NCBI GenBank assembly: GCA_001775995.1
Contig: MEZH01000013.1
Location: 1-37,654 of the forward strand
Length of the DNA: 37,654 nt
Direction: 5' to 3'
Source: Candidatus Bathyarchaeota archaeon RBG_16_48_13
GTDB lineage: Archaea; Thermoproteota; Bathyarchaeia; RBG-16-48-13
In this document: one piece after another, positions 15,234 through 30,611 of the stretch
Layout of the letters: each line of letters begins with the position of its first letter
How positions within the stretch are numbered: position 1 is the first letter of the stretch
Program-made: the position numbers and the translations under genes
The notes under the pieces: generated by a model
What the model saw: the letters and a program-made list of their open reading frames with translations, nothing else
What the model was told of the DNA's origin: nothing
Database searches by the model: none

Positions 15234-16319
15234 TTACTTTCGCTGAGTCATTCCTTCCATGCCGGCTAGCTGGTTTGGCCTAGACAATTTGGTGCGCTTT
15301 ATCTCCTCTATTAGTGCTGGCACAATATCTCGATAATCACCTACGACACCATAGTCGGCGTACTTGAAAATGGGAGCCTCAGAATCCGTGTTGATGGCCA
15401 TGACGCTTTTTGCTTCCCTGATTCCGAAGACATGTTGAGCTGAACCGCTAATTCCAACCGCAATGTACAGTATTGGTTTCACCGTTTTTCCTGTTTGTCC
15501 TATTTGGCGGTCTGCCGGCAGCCAGCCAGCGTCTACTGCTTTTCGTGACCCTGCCACAACCCCCCCAAGTTGGGAGGCAAGCTCCTCCAAAAGTCCAATG
15601 CCCTCTGGGCCTCCGATCCCCTTACCAGCGCTTACAATGCAGTCTGCTTTCTCCAGAAGCACTCTACCTAGTCCCAGACTTTGACTATTGACCAAACGGC
15701 CTCTGGGTTTTGGAACGTCAACCTCGGCCCTGATTATTTTTCCCATTTTCCCCTCATCGCGCTTGGGAAGAGGAAAGACGTTTGGTCGAGCGGTGGCTAT
15801 TTGGGGTCTCCTAAAGGGTGTTCTGATGGACGCTAACATGATAGCTCCAAACGGAGGCCTTATCTGAAGGACGTCTCTGCTTTCGGAATCCACGTCAAAT
15901 CCGGTGCAGTCAGCAGTTATCCCCACCCTCAAGATGTTCGCAATGCACGGCGCCATCTCTCGGCATCTCATGGTTCCAGCTATCAGTATGAGTTCAGGCT
16001 TGAAGCGCTTGGCGAGTTGGGCCATCACTGACGCATATATTTCTGGAAAGTAGGTGCCCAACGATGGTTCATCCACAAGTATTGAACGATCAGCACCATG
16101 GTAGAACATTTCCCTAGCGACTTTAGAAATTTTGGACCCTAAGATCACTCCCGTCACATCAACATCGAGCTTAGTCGCTAATTCCTTCGCTGGTGTGAGC
16201 ATCTGTAGGGACGCCTCAGAAATTCGTCCCCCGTGGATGTCGCCTAATACCCATATTCCCCGGTAATCTTTCTTTTCGACGTCCTCCCACTCAGGGCAAG
16301 ACGATTCCTTTTCAGACAT
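15234..16319 (-). CDS. fixB: Electron transfer flavoprotein alpha subunit (FixB/EtfA)
   Basis: GITADCT, QIRPPFG, SAGKG, GSRKAVDAGW and QIGQTGKTVKP..YIAVGISGSAQH motifs; start (ATG 16319 or GTG 16322) overlaps fixA stop. Confidence 0.93.
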   Translation of the reverse strand: MSEKESSCPEWEDVEKKDYRGIWVLGDIHGGRISEASLQMLTPAKELATKLDVDVTGVILGSKISKVAREMFYHGADRSILVDEPSLGTYFPEIYASVMAQLAKRFKPELILIAGTMRCREMAPCIANILRVGITADCTGFDVDSESRDVLQIRPPFGAIMLASIRTPFRRPQIATARPNVFPLPKRDEGKMGKIIRAEVDVPKPRGRLVNSQSLGLGRVLLEKADCIVSAGKGIGGPEGIGLLEELASQLGGVVAGSRKAVDAGWLPADRQIGQTGKTVKPILYIAVGISGSAQHVFGIREAKSVMAINTDSEAPIFKYADYGVVGDYRDIVPALIEEIKRTKLSRPNQLAGMEGMTQRK

Positions 16320-17161
16320 CACCTATGGGCCCCTCCGATAAGGTTGATGTCTTCATCCGCGTACTTCTGCATCAGCCACTTTGCTGCCTTTCCGGCATCA
16401 GGGTCCATGAAGACCTCGCGTTTGCGCTTGACCTCAGGAGTGTAATCGATCTTGGAAACCCATGTGGGTGATCCCTTCAGCCCTACACAGTTTGGGTTGA
16501 GCTTCAAGATTTCGTTGGTAACAATCTCAATAGGCTTCTCTGCTTTAGCTCTGATTTTGTAGATCAGTCTCACAGGCCTCGGTTCCCTGCTCTTCATCGC
16601 CACTCCTAGAACAGCTGGCAGAGGGAGATCGTAAATGGTCTTCTCATCCTCAAGCCACCTTTCGACAGCTATGAATCCGTTTTCTTTGATCTCGACGCTT
16701 CTCACGTAATAGAGGTATGGGAGGTCTAGCCATGAAGCAGTCTGCGCGGCTATGTGCGCGGTGGAGCTGTCAATCGTCTCCTGGCCGAAGATCACAAGAT
16801 CTAACTTGCCGCGCTGATTGGAGATCCTCTTTACGGCGTGAGCAAGGACGTAGCTCGTTGCCAGTGTATCAGCACCACCGTATATTCTGTCAGACACTAG
16901 AATTGCGCTATCTACCCCCATACCCAAGACCTGCTCCAGTCCCTCAATCGCTGAAGGAGGAGCCATGCTTAACGCATTCACTTCACCGCCATATCGATCC
17001 CTCAGATCTAGGGCAAACTCCACGGCGTCTAGGTCGTGAGGATTAACGATGCTGGGGACGCCCTCCCTTATCAATGCCCCCGTCTTGGGGTCAAATCTGA
17101 CATTCGAAGTATTGGGAACCCACTTGATGCCCACGAGGATCTGCAAACCCAACCTCTTCAT
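16319..17161 (-). CDS. fixA: Electron transfer flavoprotein beta subunit (FixA/EtfB)
   Basis: KWVP, LIREGVPSIVNPHD, GADTLATSYVL and FGQETIDSSTAH motifs; ATG 17161. Confidence 0.93.
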   Translation of the reverse strand: MKRLGLQILVGIKWVPNTSNVRFDPKTGALIREGVPSIVNPHDLDAVEFALDLRDRYGGEVNALSMAPPSAIEGLEQVLGMGVDSAILVSDRIYGGADTLATSYVLAHAVKRISNQRGKLDLVIFGQETIDSSTAHIAAQTASWLDLPYLYYVRSVEIKENGFIAVERWLEDEKTIYDLPLPAVLGVAMKSREPRPVRLIYKIRAKAEKPIEIVTNEILKLNPNCVGLKGSPTWVSKIDYTPEVKRKREVFMDPDAGKAAKWLMQKYADEDINLIGGAHR

Positions 17162-17172
17162 ATGCCCCTTTC

Positions 17173-17475
17173 TCAAGTGAATCTGTATTGAATACCCTTA
17201 CCGCTTCTTGGATAGTTCCAGCTGATTGCATTTTGTGGGCAGACAATCCTGCATGTCCCGCACTCCAGACAACCTGAATAGCTGAACAGGACTTTTCCAC
17301 CTAGTAGATCGTAGCATTTGGCTGGACAGAGATCTATGCAAGGTTTGGTTTCGCAACCGATGCAACGATCAAAATTCACCGATATGTGCGGTGTCTCCTC
17401 CACGTCATAAAGGTCGACCTTCAGAATGTCGTCCACGTTGACGGGCTTTTTCGTGAGGTCATCCTTTTGGGTCAT
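17173..17475 (-). CDS. fixX: FixX-type 2[4Fe-4S] ferredoxin
   Basis: CIGCETKPCIDLCPAKCY and GCLECGTCRIVC...WNYPRSGKGIQYRF; ATG 17475 overlaps fixC TGA. Confidence 0.92.
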   Translation of the reverse strand: MTQKDDLTKKPVNVDDILKVDLYDVEETPHISVNFDRCIGCETKPCIDLCPAKCYDLLGGKVLFSYSGCLECGTCRIVCPQNAISWNYPRSGKGIQYRFT

Positions 17476-18785
17476 AATGTTCTCCCGATCTTGTACATGT
17501 CTTTGATCGCCGTCCAAGCGTCTGGGCCTACATCCTTCTGGGCGCCTCTGAGCGCTTTCCAAATGGTTGGACTTTCGAGTCCGATGTTGAATATTCTCCC
17601 CAAACCACTGTTAACCAGCCTTGGATATTGATCAAAGAAGTGAGGGTTGCGTCTGATGTATTCCAGTCCATTGTGTTTCCTTAACTCTCTGCCGATGAAT
17701 GATTCTTCCACCCGCCGACCGTATGCTGAGAGCATTTCGGACGTGAAGTCACCTTCTGCATGTGCCTTTGTGAAGGTTTCAGCCGCAAGGTAGCCCGAGT
17801 AGGCCGCCAAGTCCACACCCCGAATGGTCATGCCATTATTGAGAAGGACCCCAGCAGCATCGCCGACTACCAACAGCCCAGCGCCGCTCAATCTTCTGGG
17901 CATGAATCCACGCCAATATTCGGGTACCAGTTTTGCAGAGTATTCCAGCAGTTCCCCATCCCTCCACAGATGCTTGAGTTTAGGGTGAAGTCTAAAGTCC
18001 TCAAGAAGTCTGGAAATATGCCCGTTAGTTCTCTTGACGGCGTGAGAAAGAAACAGAACAAGACCAATGCTGACGCTGTCCCTGTTGGTGTAGACGAATG
18101 CACCTCCAGGTATATATCTGGTAACGCTACCAAGAAGAATCCATGCCATGCCCTCATCTTCCAGGCCAAACCTCTGGTTGACTCGCTCCGCGTCGAGCTT
18201 GATCGTCTCCTTCAATCCTATCGCGAGATCCTCTTGGCGTGGGACGTTCATTTGCCAAGCGCCTTCAAGAAGAAGCCTGTTAACGCCCTCGGCGTCGATG
18301 ACAGTGTCGGCGTAAACGGTGTCAGGTCCGGCCTGAACGCCTATCACCTTTTCTTTTTCGACTACCAGCCTGTCCACCCTCACCTCAGTCGCCACCAAAG
18401 CGCCGGCTTCTTCCGCTTTAGCCCTCATCCAGTTGACAAGTTCAGGCAGATACGTCGTGAAACTCTTGGATTCTCCGCCCCTGTATTCGATCGAGGTGAG
18501 TCCTTCATCAGAGACGAAGCTGAGTCTTTCAGCCTTTACCCATCGATGCACGGGGGCATCCTTCCTCAGCGATGGAAAGATTGCCTCCAGCGGTTCTGAA
18601 TAAACGCGGCCACCATACATGTTCTTGGTGCCAGCTCTTCGGCCCCGATCTATCATCAGCACCTTGAAACCCTTGCGAGCCAAGGTGAATGACGCCGAGG
18701 ATCCGGCAGGCCCAGCCCCAACGACGATTGCGTCGAACCTGTTGGTTGAAGGACTCGCGTTGGGGGTTGAGTGTTCGGTTGACAT
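17472..18785 (-). CDS. fixC: FixC/EtfC FAD-dependent ETF:quinone oxidoreductase
   Basis: GAGPAG Rossmann motif, GTKNMYGGRVY, EYSAKLVPE, VVGDAAG...RGVDLA; context with fixX, fixA and fixB. Confidence 0.9.
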   Translation of the reverse strand: MSTEHSTPNASPSTNRFDAIVVGAGPAGSSASFTLARKGFKVLMIDRGRRAGTKNMYGGRVYSEPLEAIFPSLRKDAPVHRWVKAERLSFVSDEGLTSIEYRGGESKSFTTYLPELVNWMRAKAEEAGALVATEVRVDRLVVEKEKVIGVQAGPDTVYADTVIDAEGVNRLLLEGAWQMNVPRQEDLAIGLKETIKLDAERVNQRFGLEDEGMAWILLGSVTRYIPGGAFVYTNRDSVSIGLVLFLSHAVKRTNGHISRLLEDFRLHPKLKHLWRDGELLEYSAKLVPEYWRGFMPRRLSGAGLLVVGDAAGVLLNNGMTIRGVDLAAYSGYLAAETFTKAHAEGDFTSEMLSAYGRRVEESFIGRELRKHNGLEYIRRNPHFFDQYPRLVNSGLGRIFNIGLESPTIWKALRGAQKDVGPDAWTAIKDMYKIGRTL

Positions 18786-18818
18786 TACACGGTTACCTGG
18801 GAAAAAAAGGGGGAGAAG

Positions 18819-19421
18819 TTATGTGGCTGGAGCTGGTGGTTTGAGATGTCCAAATGTGGTATTTGCCCCTAAGTATAGCCAAGCCGCGGCATAGGCTATG
18901 GCGCCAATCGAGAAGAGCAACCTGAGCCATTTATTGTCACTGTGGGTAGCGGGAACCGAGAGAAACGTTGCTGCGGCCACCGACAAGTAGGCCAGAGCAC
19001 TCTTCAATGGGTCTGAGGTCATTCCATAGGCAAGAATTGAATATGCATCGACAACTAGGTAGGCGCCCAGCACGGCAGCGGAGTAAGAGACTGCTTTCAA
19101 CCCTCTATTCCAGAACAGCGCTGCTGAAAATCCCATGAGATTCAGGCCACCAAGGGCAGCGACCCCGCCAAAGAGTATGTTGGGACCTCCGCCTGGCGAA
19201 GTAAAGATCCAATTGAAGAGAATATGTGTGCCACTAAGGAAAAGAAATAGTCCGTTCAATCCAATAGCTATCGCTAGCCCCCTGCTCATGTTGTGTCCAG
19301 ATTCTTCGATGGCGTCGGTGGACGCCCTGTAAGGCAGTTTCCACAGGGCTATCCCTGACAGAATTCCGCTCGCTGCGATGCTGTACATCATAGTGTCAAG
19401 TAGGTCAAAAGGTGGTGCCAA
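18819..19421 (-). CDS. DUF981-like polytopic membrane protein
   Basis: About six TM helices; FDLLDTM, W..SPGGGPNILFG and GMTSDPLKS motifs resembling DUF981/COG3374; GGAGG RBS before TTG. Confidence 0.65.
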   Translation of the reverse strand: MAPPFDLLDTMMYSIAASGILSGIALWKLPYRASTDAIEESGHNMSRGLAIAIGLNGLFLFLSGTHILFNWIFTSPGGGPNILFGGVAALGGLNLMGFSAALFWNRGLKAVSYSAAVLGAYLVVDAYSILAYGMTSDPLKSALAYLSVAAATFLSVPATHSDNKWLRLLFSIGAIAYAAAWLYLGANTTFGHLKPPAPAT

Positions 19422-19653: not shown

Positions 19654-21090
19654 CTAAAGGATAAGCAATGACGCCAACACTGGGGCTAGTCCTAGGCCCA
19701 GGGCTACAGTTAGCACAGTGGTCAAAACAACAGCTATCACTGCGGGATCTCGGGGGTTCTCCCTCACCTCGTTGCGGTCATCTGTTCCTCGAGTTGATAG
19801 GACGTATCGTATTATCTGCGCGTAGTAACCGACAGACACACCGGTATTGATTACTGCGATCAGGGCAAGCCAGGGGGCTATCTCTATGACTGAAAAGAAG
19901 AGGTACATGAATTTGCTCCAGAAGCCTATTAGAGGGGGCATGCCAATGAGGCTGAACACCAATATGACGATGCAGGATGATAAGATCGGCATTTTTCTCC
20001 ATAAGCCAGCAATGCCATCTAGATCCGTCCCCAGACCTTTCTCGGCCAAATAGGATAAGGCGACAAAAATGCCTGTTGTAGCCAGGGCGTATGTTGCCAG
20101 ATGTAGGGCAATTCCCTGAGCCCCGATGGTCGCGCTGACTCCGCTGCCGCCAGCTGCGAAACCGACCAACATGTATCCTACATGCGCAAGGCTGCTGTAT
20201 CCCATCATTTTTTGAAAGTTTCTCTGAATCAAAGCCGCTACGTTGCCGAATGTCATCGTCACGATTGCGAATGCAGCGAATAGGAAAAGCCAACTGACGC
20301 CCAATTTCGGAGCGAAGGGATAGACTATCCGCAGAAGTGCGGCGATGCCTGACACCTTCACTATGCCCGCAATATAGGAAACCAAGATTGGATTTACGCC
20401 TCCGTATACATCAGGTAGCCAACCGTGGAAAGGGACAATTCCGACTTTGAAGCCGAAAGCTGCAACGATCATTATGATGGCTGTCAATATCGCTTGCATG
20501 TTGGCGGGGGAGGCGGCTTGCACTATCGTGCGTATGTCGGTGGAACCGGTCACGCCGTATAGGATTGCAATCCCAAAAAGCAGGAAGGCAGAGGCGACAA
20601 TGCCCATCAAGGCGTATTTGGCAGCACCTTCGAGAGAAGCCTCATCTTTCTTTATTCCAACGAATGCGTAGGAAGCCACGGAAACCAACGCCCAAGCCGC
20701 CAGAAGAAGAACCAAATCGTTAACTGCTATTATATAGTAAACCCCTACTGTGATAATAAGGATCAGAGAGAAATAGCTGGGAGCGGTCGTCCATTTTGAG
20801 GTATGGGTGAAAGAGGCAAGCGTTACAAAAAGGGCTCCAAGACTGGTAATAGTGAATAGAAAGGCGCCGTAGGCGTCTATCTTCAAGGCCCCATCGTAGA
20901 CGTACGTCGGGGGGTTGCCCAATGTCAGAGACAGCAATCCAATTGAAAGAGCCAGAGCGAGAAGAATCGCGGCTAGACACAACCAACGGCTTATTCTCTT
21001 CTTCAGATAGTATTCAATCGTCGGCGTGGCTAGTCCGATACCTCCGAGCAACAACCCAAGTATATCCAATAGGATTTCAACGGTCAACAA
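19654..21090 (-). CDS. nuoN: Complex I-like antiporter subunit N
   Basis: EGAAKYALMG, FKVGIVPFHGWLPDVYGG, YSSLAHVGY and GMPPLIGFWSKF motifs. Confidence 0.9.
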   Translation of the reverse strand: MLTVEILLDILGLLLGGIGLATPTIEYYLKKRISRWLCLAAILLALALSIGLLSLTLGNPPTYVYDGALKIDAYGAFLFTITSLGALFVTLASFTHTSKWTTAPSYFSLILIITVGVYYIIAVNDLVLLLAAWALVSVASYAFVGIKKDEASLEGAAKYALMGIVASAFLLFGIAILYGVTGSTDIRTIVQAASPANMQAILTAIIMIVAAFGFKVGIVPFHGWLPDVYGGVNPILVSYIAGIVKVSGIAALLRIVYPFAPKLGVSWLFLFAAFAIVTMTFGNVAALIQRNFQKMMGYSSLAHVGYMLVGFAAGGSGVSATIGAQGIALHLATYALATTGIFVALSYLAEKGLGTDLDGIAGLWRKMPILSSCIVILVFSLIGMPPLIGFWSKFMYLFFSVIEIAPWLALIAVINTGVSVGYYAQIIRYVLSTRGTDDRNEVRENPRDPAVIAVVLTTVLTVALGLGLAPVLASLLIL

Positions 21091-21096
21091 GTCTTC

Positions 21097-23313
21097 CTAA
21101 ATCACCCCCAACAAGAGCAACAGAAGGAGTGCGTTGAACCCTAGCAAGAGGAGCAGAAGGTAGTCGTTGACCCTGCCTGTCTGAATCCTTCTGAAAGCGT
21201 TTGAAAGAAGGAGCGACGCCTTGGCGACCACAAGGTTATAGCCTTTATCTATGACTGCGGTTTCAAAGGCCTTGAATATGGAATCAGAAGCAAGCACGAA
21301 CGCTCTTGGCATCGCGCGATGATAGCCTCTGTCTATTACGCCTGTTTCAAAATATTTGGAGCCCACCGAAGAAGCCTTGGCTGCAAACCAGGGTATGATT
21401 CTATGATAAACGCGATCCACAACCCCTACATCCACGTATTTGAAAAGTCCATTCGCCAAATTGCTGGCTCCTTGGACAAAGATCTTGTAGTAGATCGAAT
21501 TCAAGTACCACCTATTGTACAGAAAACTCTGAATTCCCCTGGAGACCTTGTTCTTAGCCAATCTTTCGCCTATTTTCAAGTTTGATCCTCGTTTTCCATA
21601 TGTCAGGTAGGCCGTGCCCACGCCCACGGAAACCATGGCCAAGGACGTCCCCGTGAGAAGAGGGTCAAGCTCAACGCCAATGCTGAGGGGTTTCTCGGTC
21701 ATCGCCAACGCGTTCTTTATCAGTGCAGAGGAGATATCGCCTCCAACGAAAATCCAGACTACGCCAATCGCAACGGTCACAATTGCTAGCAATGCGTAGG
21801 GGGCGAGCAGCATTGGGTTTGCCTCATGCAATTCATTTTCCCCGGCCATGTGCTTTACTCTTTCAGAGGGCTGTGTCAGGAAGGTCTTCATTATGAGTCT
21901 GATCGAGTAGAAGGCTGTAAGAGCGATGGTTATCACCATCAACATCAACGGGACGAACAAATTGGTCTGATACACTATCTCTAGAAGATGATCCTTCGTC
22001 CAGAAACCCAGTAGAGGAGGTACTCCTGAGAGGCTTAGCGCCGCGATGAGCATGGTTATGAAGGTGACCTTCATGAACTTCGACAGGCCCCCCATATCGT
22101 CCATGTACCTAGATTCCACCGAGTGGATTACGGCTCCAGCCGCGAGAAACAGCGACGCCTTGAAGATTGCGTGGCTCATCAGGTAATTGAAGGCTGCAAT
22201 GAAGCCGCTGCTGAAATCAGCGATTAGCCCCGAAGCGCCACATGCCATGAAGATCAAGCCCAATTGAGAGGCTGTTGAAAACGCCAAGACCAATTTGAGC
22301 TCTTTCGCCACGATTGCCTGCGTCGCCATCAGGAAAGCTGTGAACGCTCCCAAGTAGACGATGACCGTAAAATAGAGTCTCACGTCGGCGGCAGCGCTGG
22401 GCACGATAAGGTTCAGTTCCCTCGATGCAAGATAGATTATGGGCGTGAATCGAAGCATGAAGAAAATGCCTGCTTTCACCATTGTTGCAGCGTGTATTAA
22501 CGCGCTGACGGACGTTGGGCCGGTCATAGCTGTGACGAGCCATTCGTGAAAAGGAAATTGGGCGCTCTTGGCCATGGCGCCTAGCGTAAAAGCGAACATG
22601 AACGGAAGCAGCATCCCTCTTACCGCCAGTTCCTGACCCCACAGTGCAACATTGCTAGCCATCGCGGGAATGCTTAGCGAATTCGTAAGCATGTAGATCA
22701 CCCCAATGCCGGCAATTAATCCGACATCCCCCAATCTCGTGAAGACGAGGGCTCGAACACCACTGTGGCTCGGTGAGAAGTCCATGGGGATACCCAAGAC
22801 CTTTCTGCCTTCGTCCCCCACCCACTTGTCCTTCTGATCGGTGAACCAATGCCCTATGAGGGCGTAGGAGGCTAAGCCTGTGCCTTCCCATCCAATAAAC
22901 ATCAGAAGTAGATTTCCTGCCATGACTATGAGTAGCATGCTTGCGGTGAAGAAACTGAAAAAAAACCAGTACCGAGTGAGGCCCGCGTCACCTTCCATGT
23001 ATTTGAGGCTGTAGAAGCCTATGAGAAAACACAGCCACGTGACGATAAAGGCCATGAATGCGCCCAAGGAATCGACAAATATCTCAACCTGAACCTGAAG
23101 CGATGGCACCCAAGGAACGGAAAAATGAACTACCCCACTTTCAAGGACCGTCTTCAGCAACAGCGTTGAGGAAAACGCGCTGAGGAATAGCATGCCGACA
23201 GCAACATATCCTCGCCATTTATCCAACTTCAAAACTGACAGAAGAAGTACGATGGCCGCTCCAACATAAGGGGCCGCCCATGTTGCGTTGGCTATTATTC
23301 CGTCTAGTATCAA
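21097..23313 (-). CDS. nuoL: Complex I-like antiporter subunit L with elongated lateral helix (738 aa)
   Basis: GWEGTGLASYALIGHWF, AKSAQFPFHEWL, SALIHAATMVKAG, SHAIFKASLFL, GFWTKD and C-terminal QTG motif. Confidence 0.93.
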   Translation of the reverse strand: MILDGIIANATWAAPYVGAAIVLLLSVLKLDKWRGYVAVGMLFLSAFSSTLLLKTVLESGVVHFSVPWVPSLQVQVEIFVDSLGAFMAFIVTWLCFLIGFYSLKYMEGDAGLTRYWFFFSFFTASMLLIVMAGNLLLMFIGWEGTGLASYALIGHWFTDQKDKWVGDEGRKVLGIPMDFSPSHSGVRALVFTRLGDVGLIAGIGVIYMLTNSLSIPAMASNVALWGQELAVRGMLLPFMFAFTLGAMAKSAQFPFHEWLVTAMTGPTSVSALIHAATMVKAGIFFMLRFTPIIYLASRELNLIVPSAAADVRLYFTVIVYLGAFTAFLMATQAIVAKELKLVLAFSTASQLGLIFMACGASGLIADFSSGFIAAFNYLMSHAIFKASLFLAAGAVIHSVESRYMDDMGGLSKFMKVTFITMLIAALSLSGVPPLLGFWTKDHLLEIVYQTNLFVPLMLMVITIALTAFYSIRLIMKTFLTQPSERVKHMAGENELHEANPMLLAPYALLAIVTVAIGVVWIFVGGDISSALIKNALAMTEKPLSIGVELDPLLTGTSLAMVSVGVGTAYLTYGKRGSNLKIGERLAKNKVSRGIQSFLYNRWYLNSIYYKIFVQGASNLANGLFKYVDVGVVDRVYHRIIPWFAAKASSVGSKYFETGVIDRGYHRAMPRAFVLASDSIFKAFETAVIDKGYNLVVAKASLLLSNAFRRIQTGRVNDYLLLLLLGFNALLLLLLLGVI
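21196..21447 (-). repeat. Three tandem 84-nt / 28-aa imperfect repeats in the NuoL lateral helix
   Basis: LFKYVDVGVVDRVYHRIIPWFAAKASSV / GSKYFETGVIDRGYHRAMPRAFVLASDS / IFKAFETAVIDKGYNLVVAKASLLLSNA; on the + strand GTTTCAAA recurs at 21260 and 21344 and TATTT at 21353 and 21437 (84-nt period). Confidence 0.85.
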
Positions 23314-23322
23314 GGAGATCTT

Positions 23323-24876
23323 CTACCTTAGCAAGCTCCTGACAAGATTGGAAAGTGGGTCTATGAAAATCGCCGGCCAAAAGAAGAGCAGTATTCCAAT
23401 TATCGCTATCACTATGATAGGAAACAGGAGGTCTCGTCTTTCCTTCGTGGGTTCATTGGAAATCTCTGGAGAGGGAGGCCCGAAGAAGATGCGTTTGATT
23501 GTGATGAAAGAATATGCCGTTGAGAGCCCTATGGCGACCAGCAGACCTATCACGAGGAGCACGAATGCAGTCGCGCCAATTTCGCTGGCCCGAGCTACTG
23601 CTCCAAAGACTATGAGCACTTCGCTCCAGAGGCCGAGCGAGGGCGGCACGCCAGTTATCTGCATGAACCCAATGAGGGCCAAGGCGGCAGTTACCGGCAA
23701 TCGAACAGCTAGTCCACCCATCTTCCGTATGCTTCTTAACCCGTGAAGCTGAACGATTAGAACACCCGCAACAGAGAAGAGCACAGCCTTTCCGACAGCA
23801 TGTGTTGCGTATTGAAGCATGGCTCCTGAGACACCGAGGGTGTTGAGACTTGAGATTCCCAGGAGCAAGTAGCCCATCTGGGAAATGCTGGAATATGCCA
23901 GCATCCTCTTGAAATCATCTTGAGCAAGCGTCATCAAACCTCCATAGATCATTGTTATCAGCGACAGCACAATCAGATACACCGAGATCGAAGCAAAAAC
24001 GGTCGGAAACAATAGGTAAGCGATCCTCACTAGAGCATAGCCACCAATTCCAATTAGGTTAGGCGAGAGAAGGGCCGAAACAGGGGTTGGAGCCTCAGCG
24101 TGAGCGTAGGGCAACCAAATATGAACGCCGAAGACTGCCATTTTCACCAATAGGCCAACAATCAGAATCAAGGCAACATAGAAAATAATGTTCTGCGGGA
24201 GAAGTTCGCCTATTCCGATGTTGAAGGTCAAGGTTTGCATATTCAGTATGTCAAAAGTCTTTGCGTTAAATCCTACAGTTATCGCTCCAATTAAGAAAAG
24301 CAGAGCACCCACGTGAGTCCAGATCAGATACATCAGCGCAATCCTCTCTCGAGCTCCGTATCCATAAAATGCAATTAGGAGAAAACTGGGGACCAGAGTC
24401 AATTCAAGGAATATGTAGAACTCCGCGAGGTTAGTGGATAGGGCAGTCCCAAGCATGGCTGACGCGAACATGATGTAGAGCATGTAATAGATTCCCCAGG
24501 ACGGTTCGTGTGTGCCCTCTTTCTGCATGTCCTCAAAGCGGTGCTCCATGTAGGGAAAAGAGAAGACAGCCACCATGGTTGTGACTAGGACTATGGAAAA
24601 AGCAATGGGCCCGCTCAGTCCATCCAGCAACATAGAAAAGGAACCCAAAAAGGGCTGACCAAAATATGGGGGGTCTACGACACCTTCGTTGAGTCCTGGG
24701 AAGAACGTGAACCCAACGATAACAATCAGCGGATAGAGCAAGAGCAACGTGCTCAAAGTCGCCACCGTCTTGGCTCGAATTCTCCTTCCGATTACGGGTA
24801 GGAGCACTGAAGCCAAAAAGGGTACCACAACTGAGGTTAGTAGTATAGGTTGGTCCAGTTTCAACATTTTTTTCAC
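23323..24876 (-). CDS. nuoM: Complex I-like antiporter subunit M
   Basis: FYIFLELTLVP, VKMAVFGVHIWLPYAHAEAP, AYSSISQMGY and GVPPSLGLWSE motifs. Confidence 0.92.
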   Translation of the reverse strand: MKKMLKLDQPILLTSVVVPFLASVLLPVIGRRIRAKTVATLSTLLLLYPLIVIVGFTFFPGLNEGVVDPPYFGQPFLGSFSMLLDGLSGPIAFSIVLVTTMVAVFSFPYMEHRFEDMQKEGTHEPSWGIYYMLYIMFASAMLGTALSTNLAEFYIFLELTLVPSFLLIAFYGYGARERIALMYLIWTHVGALLFLIGAITVGFNAKTFDILNMQTLTFNIGIGELLPQNIIFYVALILIVGLLVKMAVFGVHIWLPYAHAEAPTPVSALLSPNLIGIGGYALVRIAYLLFPTVFASISVYLIVLSLITMIYGGLMTLAQDDFKRMLAYSSISQMGYLLLGISSLNTLGVSGAMLQYATHAVGKAVLFSVAGVLIVQLHGLRSIRKMGGLAVRLPVTAALALIGFMQITGVPPSLGLWSEVLIVFGAVARASEIGATAFVLLVIGLLVAIGLSTAYSFITIKRIFFGPPSPEISNEPTKERRDLLFPIIVIAIIGILLFFWPAIFIDPLSNLVRSLLR

Positions 24877-25181
24877 CCTTTGAACTTTCTCAGCTCATAG
24901 ACATCCAAACGCTTCTTGTGTTGGAACATCAGTATTGCGATCGAAACCATTATTCCCACATCGGCAACCGCGATGCCAATGGCCAGCAGTGCTATAACCC
25001 CTCCGGCTGCAGGGGAAGTTGACGATGAGGCGAGGGTAAGAAGCATGAGCACAGCAGCATTGAAATTGATCTCCGCGGACAAGAGCATCCGAAGCATATT
25101 CCTCTTTGTGATTATCCCGTATAGACCGATCCCAAACATGGCAGCTGATAGTCCCAACAATATGTATATTTCTTCCATCAA
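24873..25181 (-). CDS. nuoK: Complex I-like subunit K
   Basis: Three TM helices; GLYGIITKRNMLRMLLSAEINFNAA motif. Confidence 0.9.
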   Translation of the reverse strand: MMEEIYILLGLSAAMFGIGLYGIITKRNMLRMLLSAEINFNAAVLMLLTLASSSTSPAAGGVIALLAIGIAVADVGIMVSIAILMFQHKKRLDVYELRKFKG

Positions 25182-25675
25182 ATCTCTTCCCGTCTAGCCA
25201 GTGTTATGGCTTCAATTAGTGTCGTGACCAAGGTCAACGCTGCGACAACTAACGCGAACCAGTATTTCTGAGTCAATAAACTCGCGAGCTCACGATAGCT
25301 AATGTTGATTGGTGCCAAGGTCTTCCCGAAATATTCACCGAATATTACTAGAAGTAGAAGAAACGTCAACAACACAGAGACGGCAGCGATGATCCTGAGC
25401 GGGCGTTCAATCAAAGGGGTCTCCTCGAACATAGTTATGGAGAAGAGAATGAATACAACGGCTGCGCCTATATACACTGCCACGTGAAAGATTGCCACAA
25501 ATGTGAATCCTAATAGTGCGAAAATGGACGCGATAGATATGCCCATAATCCCCAGAAAGAATGCTGAGTAGACCAAAGATTTGTGCTCAACTACGATGAG
25601 CGAAGACAACAAAGTCACTGCAGCCAGCACGACAAGGATCATAAGGCTGGGATCGAAAAGTTCAACAGGACTCAT
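25178..25675 (-). CDS. nuoJ: Complex I-like subunit J
   Basis: SLVYSAFFLG, HVAVYIGAAVVFILF and KYWFAL motifs; ATG 25675 preferred over the track start 25729. Confidence 0.85.
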   Translation of the reverse strand: MSPVELFDPSLMILVVLAAVTLLSSLIVVEHKSLVYSAFFLGIMGISIASIFALLGFTFVAIFHVAVYIGAAVVFILFSITMFEETPLIERPLRIIAAVSVLLTFLLLLVIFGEYFGKTLAPINISYRELASLLTQKYWFALVVAALTLVTTLIEAITLARREEI

Positions 25676-26135
25676 ATCTGAGACCTCTTTTCTCGTCAAA
25701 TAGGGGTTTAACCCTCGGCTTATCCTCAATGACTGGATCTTTACTGAAATCTTCTGGTTTCAATACCTGCTCACCAAGAGTGTAGCATGCTGCATCGTGA
25801 GAACCAGACATTTCGAGAGCGTCAACAGGGCAAATATCAACGCAGAACCCGCAGAATATACATCTTTGGTATGTTATTCCGGGATATTTTCTGACATCAA
25901 CTTTGACCATTTTTAATGCGTTTGACGGACAAATGCGGGCGCATAATGTGCAGCTTATGCATATGTCGATGCGAAGCTTTAACATTCCTCTGTAATTCGG
26001 TCCAAGGTCTTGAAGAACCTCAGGGTATAGTACGGTCATTCGAGGTTTGAAGATGTGCTCTATTCCAGACCTGATTGCTTGCATGTGTCCTGTCAGGCCA
26101 AGCAGCTTCCCCGCTCTACGATCTTTGGGTTTCAT
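25662..26135 (-). CDS. nuoI: Complex I-like subunit I (2x[4Fe-4S])
   Basis: TVLYPE, CISCTLCARICP and CIFCGFCVDICP; ATG 26135 lies 2 nt after the nuoH stop. Confidence 0.92.
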   Translation of the reverse strand: MKPKDRRAGKLLGLTGHMQAIRSGIEHIFKPRMTVLYPEVLQDLGPNYRGMLKLRIDICISCTLCARICPSNALKMVKVDVRKYPGITYQRCIFCGFCVDICPVDALEMSGSHDAACYTLGEQVLKPEDFSKDPVIEDKPRVKPLFDEKRGLRYESC

Positions 26136-26137
26136 AA

Positions 26138-27154
26138 CTAGAACCCCAGCACCCACACAATGCCGAGTGAGAGAGCCACAGACGCCACAGACAATACGAA
26201 GAGGGTGTGCCATCCCAGTTTCAGCACTTGGTCTATACGGAATCTTGGGTATATGCTCCTCATGAATACGCATAAGCCCATCACAAGGAGACCTTTGACA
26301 AAAACGGCCACTCCCGGAAGAATTGGATTCAAGGTCAAGGGCCAAATAAGAGGATTCCAGCCCCCCAAAAAGACCTCGGCGAAGAACAAGCTTAGGACGC
26401 TCAGTTTTGCGTACGATGCCCCAAGACAGAGCACGAAAATTATGCCGCTGTACTCGGTGTACGGTCCAATCACTAGTTCGCTCTCGGCCTCGGCAACGTC
26501 GAAGGGAAAACGCGCCGTCGTCATGAGCATCGCAACAAAAAACGTTATGGCCGCCAATGGGTTGAGCGCGATCCCCCAGAGACCAGATGATTGTCTTCCC
26601 ACGACTTGTACCAGATCTAGGGTGTCGTATGCTACGGCCATAGCCAAAATGGAAACAAACATCGGAATCTCATAAGCCATCATTAGGTAACCGTCTCGCA
26701 GGCTTCCGATGAAGGAGAACTTGTTGTTGCTTGACCAGCCCAGGAGAAGCATGAATATTGGAGTTATCGTCAGCAGCGCCAGGACCAGGAGAAGACTCAA
26801 ATCGCTGAAAAAAGCGGCGTAGCTGTTGCTTAGTGGAATGGCTACCACCGGCAACATAGATAGCGTGAACAAGAAAATTGGAGAAAGGATGAATGCTTTT
26901 TTATCAGATCCCTTCGGAATAATGATCTCGGTGAAGAGAAACTTCAGCAGATCCGCTACTAATTGAGGTAGGCCTCCCAATGATTTCAAAACGTATAGGG
27001 GCCCATACCTCAACTGAACTTTAGCTGTGAGCTTTCTCTCGAACCATGCAATGAATATGATGACAAGGAATGTTGTCAGAAGCCCAGGAAAAATAAGGGG
27101 GATGATGATCGTGGGGGACAGTAATATCTGCAGCAACTGCTCAACAACATTCAT
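26138..27154 (-). CDS. nuoH: Complex I-like subunit H
   Basis: ERKLTAKVQLRYGP, QLVADLLKF, RFPFDVAEAESELVIGPYTEYSG and YPRFRIDQ motifs. Confidence 0.94.
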   Translation of the reverse strand: MNVVEQLLQILLSPTIIIPLIFPGLLTTFLVIIFIAWFERKLTAKVQLRYGPLYVLKSLGGLPQLVADLLKFLFTEIIIPKGSDKKAFILSPIFLFTLSMLPVVAIPLSNSYAAFFSDLSLLLVLALLTITPIFMLLLGWSSNNKFSFIGSLRDGYLMMAYEIPMFVSILAMAVAYDTLDLVQVVGRQSSGLWGIALNPLAAITFFVAMLMTTARFPFDVAEAESELVIGPYTEYSGIIFVLCLGASYAKLSVLSLFFAEVFLGGWNPLIWPLTLNPILPGVAVFVKGLLVMGLCVFMRSIYPRFRIDQVLKLGWHTLFVLSVASVALSLGIVWVLGF

Positions 27155-27157
27155 GAT

Positions 27158-28318
27158 TTATCTGTCAGCCTCCGGTGGAAAGTAGTCTAGACTACCGTAA
27201 ACGGCTGGGATATCAGCCAATTTCTGGCCCAGCAGTGCGTGTTTGAAGGCTATCAAGTTCTTGAACGAGGGCGTCACGATCCTGAATCTATAAGGGTGAG
27301 TCGAACCATCGCTCACTAAATAGTGGAAGAGTTCGCCTCGGCTCGCTTCGACGCGTGAAACTGCCTCACCTTTTGAGGGCTTTAGCCCAGAAAACAGAGC
27401 AGGAAATTTCACTGAACTCCTCTTTTCAAACCGTGTTCTTGAAGGTACAAGATCCAAATATCTGTCTGCAAGGATCGAGCCGTCAGGTATTTTGCCCAGG
27501 ATTTGCCTTATCATGCTGATGCTTTGTTCGATTTCGCCTATTCTTACCAGAAGTCGAGCATGGGCGTCGCCTTCATCTCTGACTACTACCTCAAAGTCCA
27601 AGTCAGGGTAGATGCAGTAGGGCTCAATTTTCCTTACATCGTAAGCAATGCCGGAAGCTCTGAGGTTCGGACCGACTACCCCGATTCTAGCCGCATCAAT
27701 CCTATTGATGACTCCAACTCCTTTCAGGCGAGCCAATGTCACTGGATTGTGGACGAAGATGCGGTCATAGTCTTTGAGCCTTCTCTCCATGTAACTGAGG
27801 GCCTTCAGGGCGTCATTCCTGAAGTCTTGAGGCAGGTCTCTTCTGACGCCACCAGGTATGATATATGAATAGCTGAGTCTGGCCCCAGTAAGGCGTTGAG
27901 CTAGCTCTATGAATGGCTCCCTGTCCCCAAATGCCCACATCAGCATGGTGGTGGAGCCGATCATATTCCCGTGAATGCCCATTCCGTAGAGGTGACTATG
28001 AATTCTGTTGATCTCGGCCAACAATATCCTCAAGTATTGTGCACGAAGTGGCGCATCTATTCCGAGCAGTCTTTCTAATGCTAGGACGTAACCTAGATTG
28101 TGATTGGCTGTATCAGGCAACGAAGTCCTTTCCACTAATGGTATGATTTGCACGTAAGTCTTAGTTTCGGCTATCTTCTCTACAGCTCGATGCACGTAGC
28201 CGATATTTGGCTCGAAATTGAGGATAACGTCTCCATCCATCTCGGCGACAAGCCTCATATGCCCAGAGCCGGGGTGTTGAGGCCCAATTAGGAGTTCTAA
28301 GGTTTGCTCTTCACTCAT
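27158..28318 (-). CDS. nuoD: Complex I-like subunit D (no NiFe-binding cysteines)
   Basis: GPQHPGSGH, GYVHRAVEK, EINRIHSHL, EASRGE and RFRIVTPSF; ends DYFPPEADR; neither hydrogenase CxxC motif is present. Confidence 0.93.
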   Translation of the reverse strand: MSEEQTLELLIGPQHPGSGHMRLVAEMDGDVILNFEPNIGYVHRAVEKIAETKTYVQIIPLVERTSLPDTANHNLGYVLALERLLGIDAPLRAQYLRILLAEINRIHSHLYGMGIHGNMIGSTTMLMWAFGDREPFIELAQRLTGARLSYSYIIPGGVRRDLPQDFRNDALKALSYMERRLKDYDRIFVHNPVTLARLKGVGVINRIDAARIGVVGPNLRASGIAYDVRKIEPYCIYPDLDFEVVVRDEGDAHARLLVRIGEIEQSISMIRQILGKIPDGSILADRYLDLVPSRTRFEKRSSVKFPALFSGLKPSKGEAVSRVEASRGELFHYLVSDGSTHPYRFRIVTPSFKNLIAFKHALLGQKLADIPAVYGSLDYFPPEADR

Positions 28319-28791
28319 GCGTCTATTCCTTCGGTCCTTATCGTGTAGCTCTTCCTGAGTGGTGGCTCGCCTTCGAAGTCCTCCGGAAGCAGGAGTCTTG
28401 CCATCGCTTCACGTCCTCCGAAGTTTATTCCCATGAGGTCCGTGGTCTCTCTTTCGAGAAACTCAATACTTGGCCAAACGGCGACCAGCGTGTGGATATT
28501 GGGCTCCTGACGACTGACCGTAGTTCTGATTTCAAGGATGGTCTTCGCCAACTCCAAGTCTTCAAATGACGAAACATGATAGATGACATCTATTCTGTTC
28601 TCTTCTGGGTAATCTGTGGCGGTAACCGATATCACATGATCAAATTTCAAGTTTTTCAGCAGGTGGGCTGTTTCCAATATCTTTGAGGCGTCAACCGTGA
28701 TCGATAACCCATTCTGTTTCGTTAAGAGGACCCTTGTCACAATGCCCTTCAACTTGTCAGAGATCAGGCCAGAAAGTTCTTCAGTTTTCAG
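28315..28791 (-). CDS. nuoC: Complex I-like subunit C (start either CTG 28791 or TTG 28752)
   Basis: SVTATDY, ERETTDLMGINF and LLLPEDFEGEPPLRKSY motifs; frame open to 28800 with AGGTGA RBS upstream of the CTG. Confidence 0.88.
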   Translation of the reverse strand: MKTEELSGLISDKLKGIVTRVLLTKQNGLSITVDASKILETAHLLKNLKFDHVISVTATDYPEENRIDVIYHVSSFEDLELAKTILEIRTTVSRQEPNIHTLVAVWPSIEFLERETTDLMGINFGGREAMARLLLPEDFEGEPPLRKSYTIRTEGIDA

Positions 28792-29269
28792 GGTGAGGTG
28801 TCACCTTTTTTCTAATTTTTTCTTGCTCCATCGTCAATGATTTCAGAATTGCCTCAGGCCTTGGAGGGCATCCAGGTATGTAAACATCAACGGGGAGTAT
28901 TTCATGAGGTCTGACTATGTTGTAGCTGTTCCAGAAAATCCCGCCATCGATGGCACATGCACCCATAGCAAAAACGAACTTGGGCTCAGGCATCTGTTCG
29001 TAAACAATCTTTGCCGCTTCAGCCATTTTCTTGGTTACAGTTCCTTCTATGAAAAGAACATTGCATTGGCGCGTCCCCACGAAGGGCAGGAAGCCGTATC
29101 TTTCGGCATCGTATCTTGGGCAGAAACTTGCCGCAAATTCTGACCCACAGCAAGCCGTAGTGAAGTGCACTGGCCAAAGAGAGAATGATGTCCCCCAATC
29201 TTTGAGGGAACTCAAAATCTTTTGTCGGGCTAACGCCCTCGACAATCTTCTTATGACCGCATCGAACAT
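28781..29269 (-). CDS. nuoB: Complex I-like subunit B (N2 cluster)
   Basis: Tandem Cys TACCGSE, EQMPEPK, GACAIDGG and DVYIPGCPPRPE; ATG 29269 lies 2 nt after the nuoA stop. Confidence 0.94.
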   Translation of the reverse strand: MFDAVIRRLSRALARQKILSSLKDWGTSFSLWPVHFTTACCGSEFAASFCPRYDAERYGFLPFVGTRQCNVLFIEGTVTKKMAEAAKIVYEQMPEPKFVFAMGACAIDGGIFWNSYNIVRPHEILPVDVYIPGCPPRPEAILKSLTMEQEKIRKKVTPHPEN

Positions 29270-29271
29270 GT

Positions 29272-29673
29272 TCAGCGTTCCTTTCTTTCCTTGATTTTCC
29301 ACAGCTCAATCCTATTCGCCGCATCCAAACCAAAAACTAGGGGGGGAGCGAGCATGAGCATGATCAATACGAAGAGTTGGACGACGCTATAGTACATCTC
29401 GTGCGTTTCCATCAAGAGAAGAAACAAATAGAAGAAAATGGGCTCAACGGTGAGAAAAACCACCAAGTAGGCATAGTATTGCATGGTGAACCAACCTCTC
29501 CCTCTTTTGGAGGGGGGGTTACCCGCTTCAAACCTCGCCTCCTTTATGGTCGAGTGTTTTGGAGGGGCAACGAGTCGGCTTATGGCGTAGCTCAGCAAGC
29601 CGGCACCCAAGCCACCGGACAGAGCCAAGAGAAAGGTGACCAAAGCATTATAGTCCAACGCGAGTTGACTCAC
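29272..29673 (-). CDS. nuoA: Complex I-like subunit A
   Basis: Three TM helices; RFEAGNPP and MQYYAYLVVFLTVEP motifs; GTG 29673 with G-rich RBS. Confidence 0.88.
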   Translation of the reverse strand: MSQLALDYNALVTFLLALSGGLGAGLLSYAISRLVAPPKHSTIKEARFEAGNPPSKRGRGWFTMQYYAYLVVFLTVEPIFFYLFLLLMETHEMYYSVVQLFVLIMLMLAPPLVFGLDAANRIELWKIKERKER

Positions 29674-29702
29674 AAATTGCCCCCATAAATATCTCGAATA
29701 GG

Positions 29703-30611
29703 TCAGAGAACTCCCTTGTATACCCGCACCGCCGGGCAACCCATGCATTGACCCTCAATGAATTGGACGCATTCAGCACATTTTCTACCACATGGTGCTA
29801 TATCTTCCTTCGCAGGGAAGACCCTTATATGGAATGCATCAGTCACGAGCGGCGGCTCAGAGCTGTGAACCGAGACGAGTTCTGTATCTTTGATGCCCTT
29901 AAAACTCTCAACGGTCGAGTTCAGGGTGCTCTGATCTTCGCCCCAGAGGAGAGTGAGTATGTTTGCTTTGTCAGTAGGCTTCAAGATCATCAGCACACGC
30001 GGGCAACTGAGCAGCATTTTCTCCAGTTTTTGGCGCGCATCAGAGTTCTTGCTCTCGAACGCTGCCAAAGTTGTCTTCATGCCCAGTTCGCTAAGGTTGA
30101 TCCCTGGCTTCAAGGAAAGGATCTTTCCGCTTACTAGACGATTCAATTTTGCTATTACGGTTGGTCGAGAGGACCCGATTTCCCTTGAAATTTGGAGGAC
30201 GGGCTTCCTGGAATCTCTTCGAAGTGCTTCAATGATCTTGAGGTCGATGGCATCTAGTTTCGTGGCACGACCCGGGACACTTGCATGAATTGTTCCATGC
30301 AATTTAGCATATTGAAGGGCTTCGTTCAACGAATAATCCGTTCTTTCGAGCTTGAGTCCTACCTTGGAGAAAAGCAAGGCTGCTATTAGATTTTCAATTT
30401 TAGTCGAGCCGACTCCGAAAATCGTTCTCAGTTCGTCGCTGATAGCTCTCTGGTTATTTTCGATTTCGTCACGGCGCAGAAGATTCTTTCCTTCGATGTG
30501 AACCAGGAAACTTTCTGCCGTCTTCTCATCGAGCATGATGTTCAAAGCCTCTCGAATGGAATCCAACACAAGTCCATCGAAGGTTTTGACCAGTTTTGAA
30601 GTGGTCTTCAT
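29703..30611 (-). CDS. Lrp/AsnC-family regulator with DUF3227-like N-terminal domain and five-Cys C-terminal tail
   Basis: LDAIDLKIIEALRRDSRKPVLQISREIGSSRPTV (AsnC HTH); helical N-terminal domain; tail CGRKCAECVQFIEGQCMGCP. Confidence 0.82.
   Translation of the reverse strand: MKTTSKLVKTFDGLVLDSIREALNIMLDEKTAESFLVHIEGKNLLRRDEIENNQRAISDELRTIFGVGSTKIENLIAALLFSKVGLKLERTDYSLNEALQYAKLHGTIHASVPGRATKLDAIDLKIIEALRRDSRKPVLQISREIGSSRPTVIAKLNRLVSGKILSLKPGINLSELGMKTTLAAFESKNSDARQKLEKMLLSCPRVLMILKPTDKANILTLLWGEDQSTLNSTVESFKGIKDTELVSVHSSEPPLVTDAFHIRVFPAKEDIAPCGRKCAECVQFIEGQCMGCPAVRVYKGVL

Follow-up and report, generated by a model that had tools for sequence, protein, structure and literature searches.

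The nuoL gene in a 37,654 nt stretch of DNA from Candidatus Bathyarchaeota archaeon RBG_16_48_13 (contig MEZH01000013.1, positions 1 to 37,654; the whole stretch is referred to here as the window) encodes a complex I subunit whose lateral helix (HL) contains three 28 amino acid (aa) repeat units where canonical NuoL proteins have one. The three-unit HL is real, and it is not singular to the window. In one NuoL lineage of the TACK (Thaumarchaeota, Aigarchaeota, Crenarchaeota and Korarchaeota) archaea the repeat is firmly a modular, selected cassette whose copy number has risen and fallen many times, and comparison of gene content argues firmly that antiporter genes cannot be counted from HL length. 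We tentatively favour a reading in which the HL acts as a ruler for the membrane arm, with one antiporter-like gene product filling several equivalent positions.

The NuoL lateral helix repeat

The features of nuoL that concern us here are as follows.

21097–23313, minus strand: nuoL, 738 aa, with an antiporter-like core and an extension of transmembrane helix (TM) 15, lateral helix and TM16 (Pfam, AlphaFold2 (AF2) and fold matches)
21598–21663, minus strand: TM15, aa 551–572, the near-end anchor of the lateral helix (AF2 helix)
21175–21510, minus strand: HL segment from WYLN to RIQTG, aa 602–713, 112 aa (motif positions and alignment columns)
21358–21441, minus strand: repeat unit 1, aa 625–652, starting KYVDVGVVDRVYHR (self-comparison and unit hidden Markov model (HMM))
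21274–21357, minus strand: repeat unit 2, aa 653–680, starting KYFETGVIDRGYHR (self-comparison and unit HMM)
21190–21273, minus strand: repeat unit 3, aa 681–708, starting KAFETAVIDKGYNL and running into RIQTG (unit HMM and alignment to 8qby_L)
21103–21165, minus strand: TM16, aa 717–737, the far-end anchor of the lateral helix (AF2 helix)

WYLN begins at aa 602 and RIQTG occupies aa 709–713, and the segment counted through the Gly is 112 aa long, compared with 54–58 aa in canonical NuoL proteins; the excess is 56 aa, i.e. two extra copies of the canonical unit. A first-pass annotation of the window had described three in-register 28-aa repeats in a segment of about 112 aa, some 56 residues beyond a canonical baseline of roughly 50–55 aa with one unit, and all of this holds: the segment is exactly 112 aa with the units at aa 625–708, the second NuoL of the same genome (on contig C4, see below) has 56 aa, and bacterial NuoLs have mostly 51–58 aa among the matches listed, which serves as a rough calibration. 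The coordinates given there (21196–21447) cover the same feature, but in a register 6 nt away from that of the units (21190–21441).

Units 1 and 2 share 12 of 28 residues, as do units 2 and 3, and units 1 and 3 share 5 of 28. The lag-28 BLOSUM62 self-score of the protein is 111, a value reached by none of 2000 shuffles (shuffled maxima, each taken over lags 5–59, are −23.7 ± 9.3), and the unit HMM matches three times, with 35.5, 42.2 and 30.9 bits. The 84-nt period that had also been noted in the DNA is present weakly, with 21 of 84 columns invariant among the three DNA units, but Tandem Repeats Finder run on the window does not report it, and the repeat is visible at the protein level. Such a repeat goes well past what chance would give, and its units are old and have diverged, so that an assembly artefact is very unlikely. 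The first-pass annotation had named such an artefact as something that would undo its reading; we give almost no credence to this or to an annotation error or decaying junk, since the units are only ~40% identical, which excludes repeat expansion by an assembler, the frame is open across them, and the same three units with conserved motifs are carried by five homologues from independent metagenomes (P0004–P0008, 64–69% identical).

The single HL element of Paracoccus denitrificans NuoL (8qby_L, ‘WKGGDGAVIDG...’) aligns both to unit 1 and to unit 3, and the repeat is therefore the canonical HL element, ‘..D..(V/I)(I/V)D..(Y)(H/N)..’, present three times over as a result of tandem duplication. 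An AF2 model of NuoL built from an alignment of 115 rows has a mean predicted local distance difference test score (pLDDT) of 88 with a confident core, and its best fold matches are NuoL/ND5/NdhF chains (Foldseek E ~1e-26, TM-score ~0.8 by target). The solved chains (8qby_L, 6khj_F, 8e9g_L, 4he8_F and 3rko_B) share with it the core fold, the pump residues and the TM15–HL–TM16 plan, but have one HL unit each rather than three, and the HL of the model extends far past theirs. Predicted helices cover aa 551–572, 601–686 (86 residues, continuous), 695–710 and 717–737, with a break at 687–694; units 1 and 2 are modelled as one straight helix with no fold-back.

The antiporter core has Pfam matches to Proton_antipo_N (1.9e-11), Proton_antipo_M (1.4e-52) and Proton_antipo_C. 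The pump residues E143, K249, H256, K340, K385 and K440 are invariant across the 115 homologues including the window protein, and correspond to the Glu of GWEG and to the Lys and His residues of AKSAQFPFHEW and later TMs. We also note a conserved insertion of ~25 aa (W..G....G.P..F.PSHSG) at about aa 160–185 (22770–22831, minus strand), which splits the Proton_antipo_M match and has several positions that are invariant throughout the TACK clade. The sole Tandem Repeats Finder match in nuoL is a 33-nt imperfect tandem repeat in the TM16 coding region (21112–21174, minus strand; LLLLLLGFNALLLLLLLG), which is Leu-codon low complexity and not an insertion, TM16 being equal in length to that of the homologues. 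TM16 of the window protein has an unusual Asn in mid-helix.

Unit number and antiporter genes in relatives

We surveyed the HL in the 115 nearest NuoL proteins, which derive from metagenomes, Bathyarchaeia, Nitrososphaerota, Geothermarchaeales, Korarchaeota and Thermofilaceae, taking its length from alignment columns together with the unit HMM. They fall into four classes.

1 unit: HL of 54–56 aa, 20 of 115
2 units: HL of 82–84 aa, 78 of 115, the commonest state in this TACK clade
3 units: HL of 110–113 aa, 16 of 115
4 units: HL of 139 aa, 1 of 115 (P0009, 765 aa)

The lengths are discrete, with none between classes and a spread of only ±1–2 aa within a class down to ~45% identity; such quantisation is unlike a free loop, which would drift in length. 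On a tree of the core (NuoL aa 1–598, with the HL excluded) unit number must have changed no fewer than 17 times, and well-supported branches alone demand at least 14 of these changes; in the subclade of the window the three-unit forms are a basal grade within which two-unit forms are nested, with one-unit forms nested within those in turn. Two metagenome lineages have 100% identical one-period tandem duplications in nuoL, of 84 nt (L134:4454–4623) and of 81 nt (L135:7536–7691); each is exactly one HL unit, and they appear to be very recent events or standing polymorphisms. The 16 three-unit HLs come from several independent expansions and yet keep invariant residues in every unit (D633, Y636 and H637; D661 and Y664; E684 and D689; P0001 numbering). 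Within the first half of each copy an invariant Asp and a Tyr are maintained. TM16 and its linker are conserved between unit classes about as well as the core is (ratio of different-class to same-class identity 0.85, compared with 0.90 for the core), consistent with docking at an equivalent site whatever the class.

The operon and its surroundings in the window are arranged as follows.

24873–29748, minus strand: nuoA, B, C, D, H, I, J and K, the remaining genes of the 11-subunit complex I (Pfam)
23323–24876, minus strand: the operon's single nuoM-like antiporter subunit, 517 aa, whose start overlaps the nuoK stop by 4 nt (Pfam Proton_antipo_M)
19654–21090, minus strand: nuoN-like antiporter subunit, 478 aa (Pfam Proton_antipo_M)
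15234–19421, minus strand: DUF981 and fixC-fixX-fixA-fixB (EtfABCX-type), downstream of nuoN (Pfam)

The gene order is nuoA-B-C-D-H-I-J-K-M-L-N, from 29748 down to 19654, followed on the same strand by DUF981 and fixC-X-A-B, and the operon thus has a single M, L and N (23323–24876, 21097–23313 and 19654–21090), as the first-pass annotation had reported. The window NuoD has no Ni-binding CxxC motifs, and there is no match to the NuoF family (PF01512) in the 849-kb, 75%-complete genome, where NuoE and NuoG were not searched for separately; the complex is therefore predicted to be an 11-subunit complex I of Nuo type lacking NuoEFG, and not a hydrogenase. The location of DUF981 and fixCXAB fits a ferredoxin- or electron transfer flavoprotein-linked electron input to a complex I of this kind. 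NuoM is more conserved than NuoL among the same relatives (best match 79% for M and 69% for L), and the NuoM homologues, up to 79% identical, are all about 505–520 aa long.

The first-pass annotation had gone on from helix length to an arm with two additional antiporters (‘3M’), drawing on 2M complex I, a form with a second nuoM described by Chadwick 2018 from Nitrospira, heterotrophic marine Thaumarchaeota and others. The rule of ~26 aa of HL per extra antiporter in 2M complexes is indeed reported in PMC9040806 and PMC7300363, which cite Chadwick 2018. Gene content does not back the step to three, since the same 11 genes are found in one-, two- and three-unit operons of the clade, reading ...J-K-M-L-N with M of 500–520 aa and N of 454–482 aa and then unrelated genes. 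Representatives are the following.

1-unit operon: L048
2-unit operons: L049 and Thermofilum pendens L130
3-unit operons: the window, L046/L047, L131, L133, L134 and L135

No extra antiporter gene lies near five other three-unit operons, within 9–10 kb where the contig reaches that far. Counts across whole genomes, from six-frame searches with PF00361, agree: the three-unit genomes G332 (99% complete), G352 (98%) and G423 (93%) have exactly three PF00361 genes each, as do the two-unit genomes G169 (99%) and G281 (98%), which are of the same genus and locus layout as G423, and the complete one-contig genome G128, also with two units. Subunit D of G332, G352, G423, G169 and G281 carries Ni-ligand motifs, and the cassette behaviour is therefore common to Nuo-type and hydrogenase-type complexes. 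Repeat number and antiporter gene count, whose relation the first-pass annotation had raised, are thus uncoupled in this clade, but coupled in G006:C88, in the Bathyarchaeota genome L051 and in Nitrospira L059, which among the loci listed combine a two-unit NuoL with four antiporter genes, so that one unit per pump holds elsewhere, as in the published 2M pattern (PMC9040806, PMC7300363). At the two-unit Ignavibacteria locus L112 there are three antiporter genes; this matches a remark of Yu et al. (PMC9040806) that the insertion can occur in complexes of canonical content, and together the two show that the uncoupling is not confined to archaea.

The source genome itself (G000) has six antiporter-like genes by PF00361, namely M, L and N of the window and a second M, L and N on contig C4. 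The C4 cluster (~66–80 kb; L008:7875–18244) has a divergent two-operon layout, with a split J, K, M, L and N on one strand and C, D, H and I on the other, and its D subunit retains RICGIC and DPCFSC; this makes the cluster a group-4 [NiFe]-hydrogenase that is built like complex I and has a complete L-M-N arm. Its NuoL (679 aa) is 43% identical to the window NuoL and has the same domain plan, but has one HL unit in a 56-aa HL segment, and the Ni-binding CxxC motifs absent from the window NuoD are present in the C4 D subunit. There are thus no spare antiporter genes in the assembled part of the source genome.

Two other arrangements were seen. Genomes of the Thermofilum/Infirmifilum type (L130:263–3522, CP000505.1; G125, G233 and G257) have a NuoK/MrpC-like gene and two antiporter-like genes (~555–585 and ~430 aa) directly upstream of nuoA; the three-unit relative L131 has no such genes nearby. 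Genome G009 (98% complete) has on C1 (L040) one three-unit NuoL, with a period of 26 aa, together with two antiporter genes, and on C7 (L132) another A-to-K cluster, which adds two antiporter-like genes and has no NuoL of its own.

Possible roles of the extra units

We favour, with some reserve, the reading that the HL is a ruler or strap for an L-(M)n-N arm in which the product of a single nuoM-type (or nuoN-type) gene occupies n equivalent positions. We do so because of the strict length classes, the motif kept in every unit, the unchanged TM16 and the straight-helix prediction, and because every 2M complex must at some stage have contained identical M subunits; M–M contact must then be attainable, we infer, the M copies having been identical when any 2M complex arose. 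Register also appears to matter, since insertions of 6–7 aa into the E. coli HL between L and M are harmful, with loss of pumping efficiency (PMC3274701). Held more tentatively still is the specific proposal that unit number, from one to four in TACK archaea, sets the number of copies of one antiporter-like subunit, such that an 84-nt duplication or deletion would retune H+/e− in complex I and complex-I-like hydrogenases with the genes unchanged, the window enzyme being L-M3-N. One antiporter-like subunit would be bound per HL unit, TM16 would in every case sit in an equivalent groove beside N, and gain or loss of a unit would shift pump stoichiometry with no new gene; with n = 3 the window enzyme might pump up to ~6 H+ per 2 e−. 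A low-potential donor, expected where NuoEFG is lacking (ferredoxin, with the EtfABCX-type cluster downstream), would provide energetic room for extra pumps, and the identical-M state would have given rise later, by gene duplication, to the 2M complexes and their two nuoM genes.

Several points weigh against this ruler reading. The main one is that unit number differs within one genus (G423 as compared with G169 and G281) and as fresh exact duplications, which looks near-neutral, yet a shift in H+/e− is a large functional step. Duplications of one period could also stem from microhomology at the unit starts and reflect mutational bias rather than selection. AF2 confidence declines from ~84 to ~50 along the HL, with the helix break inside unit 3. 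For a four-unit HL the ruler reading would mean 7 H+ per 2 e−, close to what thermodynamics allows. Yu et al. (PMC9040806), who saw HL insertions in complexes of canonical content, left open that these are evolutionary transitions.

A possible though rather doubtful alternative is a structured extension without extra pumps, i.e. an ordinary L-M-N arm with TM15 and TM16 in place, on which each 27–28 aa unit would be a side element at the membrane surface (for instance a short helical detour, or a segment that binds lipid or a partner) that tunes stability or assembly. This would accommodate a gene content that is constant whatever the unit number, the unchanged TM16, the low AF2 confidence in the distal units, and the frequent changes of unit number, seen even between species of one genus and in fresh duplications, which are what a change of small effect would give; normal growth with most HL insertions and substitutions in E. 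coli, as reported in PMC3274701, points the same way. Nevertheless, a length held to ±1–2 aa and an Asp/Tyr signature kept over deep divergence are too constrained for a dispensable bulge, units 1 and 2 are modelled as a single straight helix, and the same insertion accompanies an extra pump in other lineages (PMC9040806); moreover, a 42-Å helix between fixed anchors needs a defined fold and none is predicted. It is improbable that the arm is an ordinary one with one M and the HL simply a strap of greater length, the extra units passing over N and then K, J and A toward H, and TM16 lying nearer the heel so as to clamp the whole arm. No extra genes would be required, and the additional 84 Å roughly matches what is left of a bacterial membrane arm, as estimated from published structures, but by the same estimate the four-unit form (P0009) would overshoot the arm. 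From one to four units, TM16 and the RxQTG linker do not differ despite what would be quite different partners, single-unit steps, some of them fresh, give the anchor no time to re-adapt, there is no surface of 40-Å periodicity past N to receive identical units, and J, K, A and H are equal in size across one-, two- and three-unit operons.

Besides incorporation of the single NuoM in several copies, the first-pass annotation had itself offered two further ways around the lone nuoM. One was that extra antiporters are encoded elsewhere; in the source genome they would have to lie in the 25% that is missing, or be taken over from C4, to fill the two positions, and this we consider highly improbable. 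The genome is 75% complete and has a second M, L and N on C4, and there are the Thermofilum-type genomes with a K-like and two antiporter genes just upstream of nuoA; against this, the C4 genes form a complete group-4 [NiFe]-hydrogenase-type complex, self-contained and with its own one-unit NuoL, by which its antiporters are ruled out as serving the window complex. With three PF00361 genes each in G332, G352 and G423 (three units) and in G169, G281 and G128 (two units), the explanation is refuted for the relatives, where by these gene counts it firmly appears to fail in near-complete genomes, and the lack of an additional antiporter gene around the five other three-unit operons adds to this. 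The other was that the helix docks the DUF981 protein or FixC; neither gene is present beside those five operons, and for want of such co-occurrence both are rejected as HL partners.

Relation to known complexes and significance

The closest parallels to the window complex are 2M complex I and complex I of ‘Ca. Manganitrophaceae’. As described in PMC9040806 and PMC7300363, the NuoL of 2M complex I has an HL insertion of ~26–28 aa that duplicates the canonical element, and the window NuoL has two such insertions; but there a second nuoM gene is present, which neither the window operon (M, L and N only) nor the five other three-unit operons have, and in the clade of the window unit number (one to four) is uncoupled from gene number even genome-wide. 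Complex_I_3 of ‘Ca. Manganitrophaceae’ is proposed to have five pumping subunits and ~6 H+ per 2 e− (Yu et al. 2022, PMC9040806), a stoichiometry equal to that of a ‘3M’ arm, although it has five genes (two MrpD-like, two NuoM and one NuoN) and one 26-aa insert where the window has three genes and two inserts. Complex_I_1 and Complex_I_2 of the same family present the same paradox as the window, with NuoL HL insertions and canonical gene content (PMC9040806), but no series of one to four units with many recent steps is described in that paper. A search of the literature found no description of three- or four-unit HLs, of a quantised series of one to four, of archaeal HL unit polymorphism or of uncoupling from gene number, which is not proof that there is none.

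The role of the HL and the fixity of 4 H+ per 2 e− are long-standing questions about complex I, and until now additional pumps have been deduced from additional genes. In this clade it is the HL that lengthens and shortens, in exact subunit-sized steps, with the genes constant. Natural pairs are available for a direct test, including G169 and G281 against G423 within one genus, the fresh duplications of L134 and L135, and the cultured two-unit Thermofilum/Infirmifilum. If one product does fill several positions, this would offer a new means of tuning a respiratory pump, and 2M complexes could plausibly have begun in this way; if instead HL length is an unreliable proxy for pump number, this would undercut the calling of 2M and five-pump complexes from sequence.

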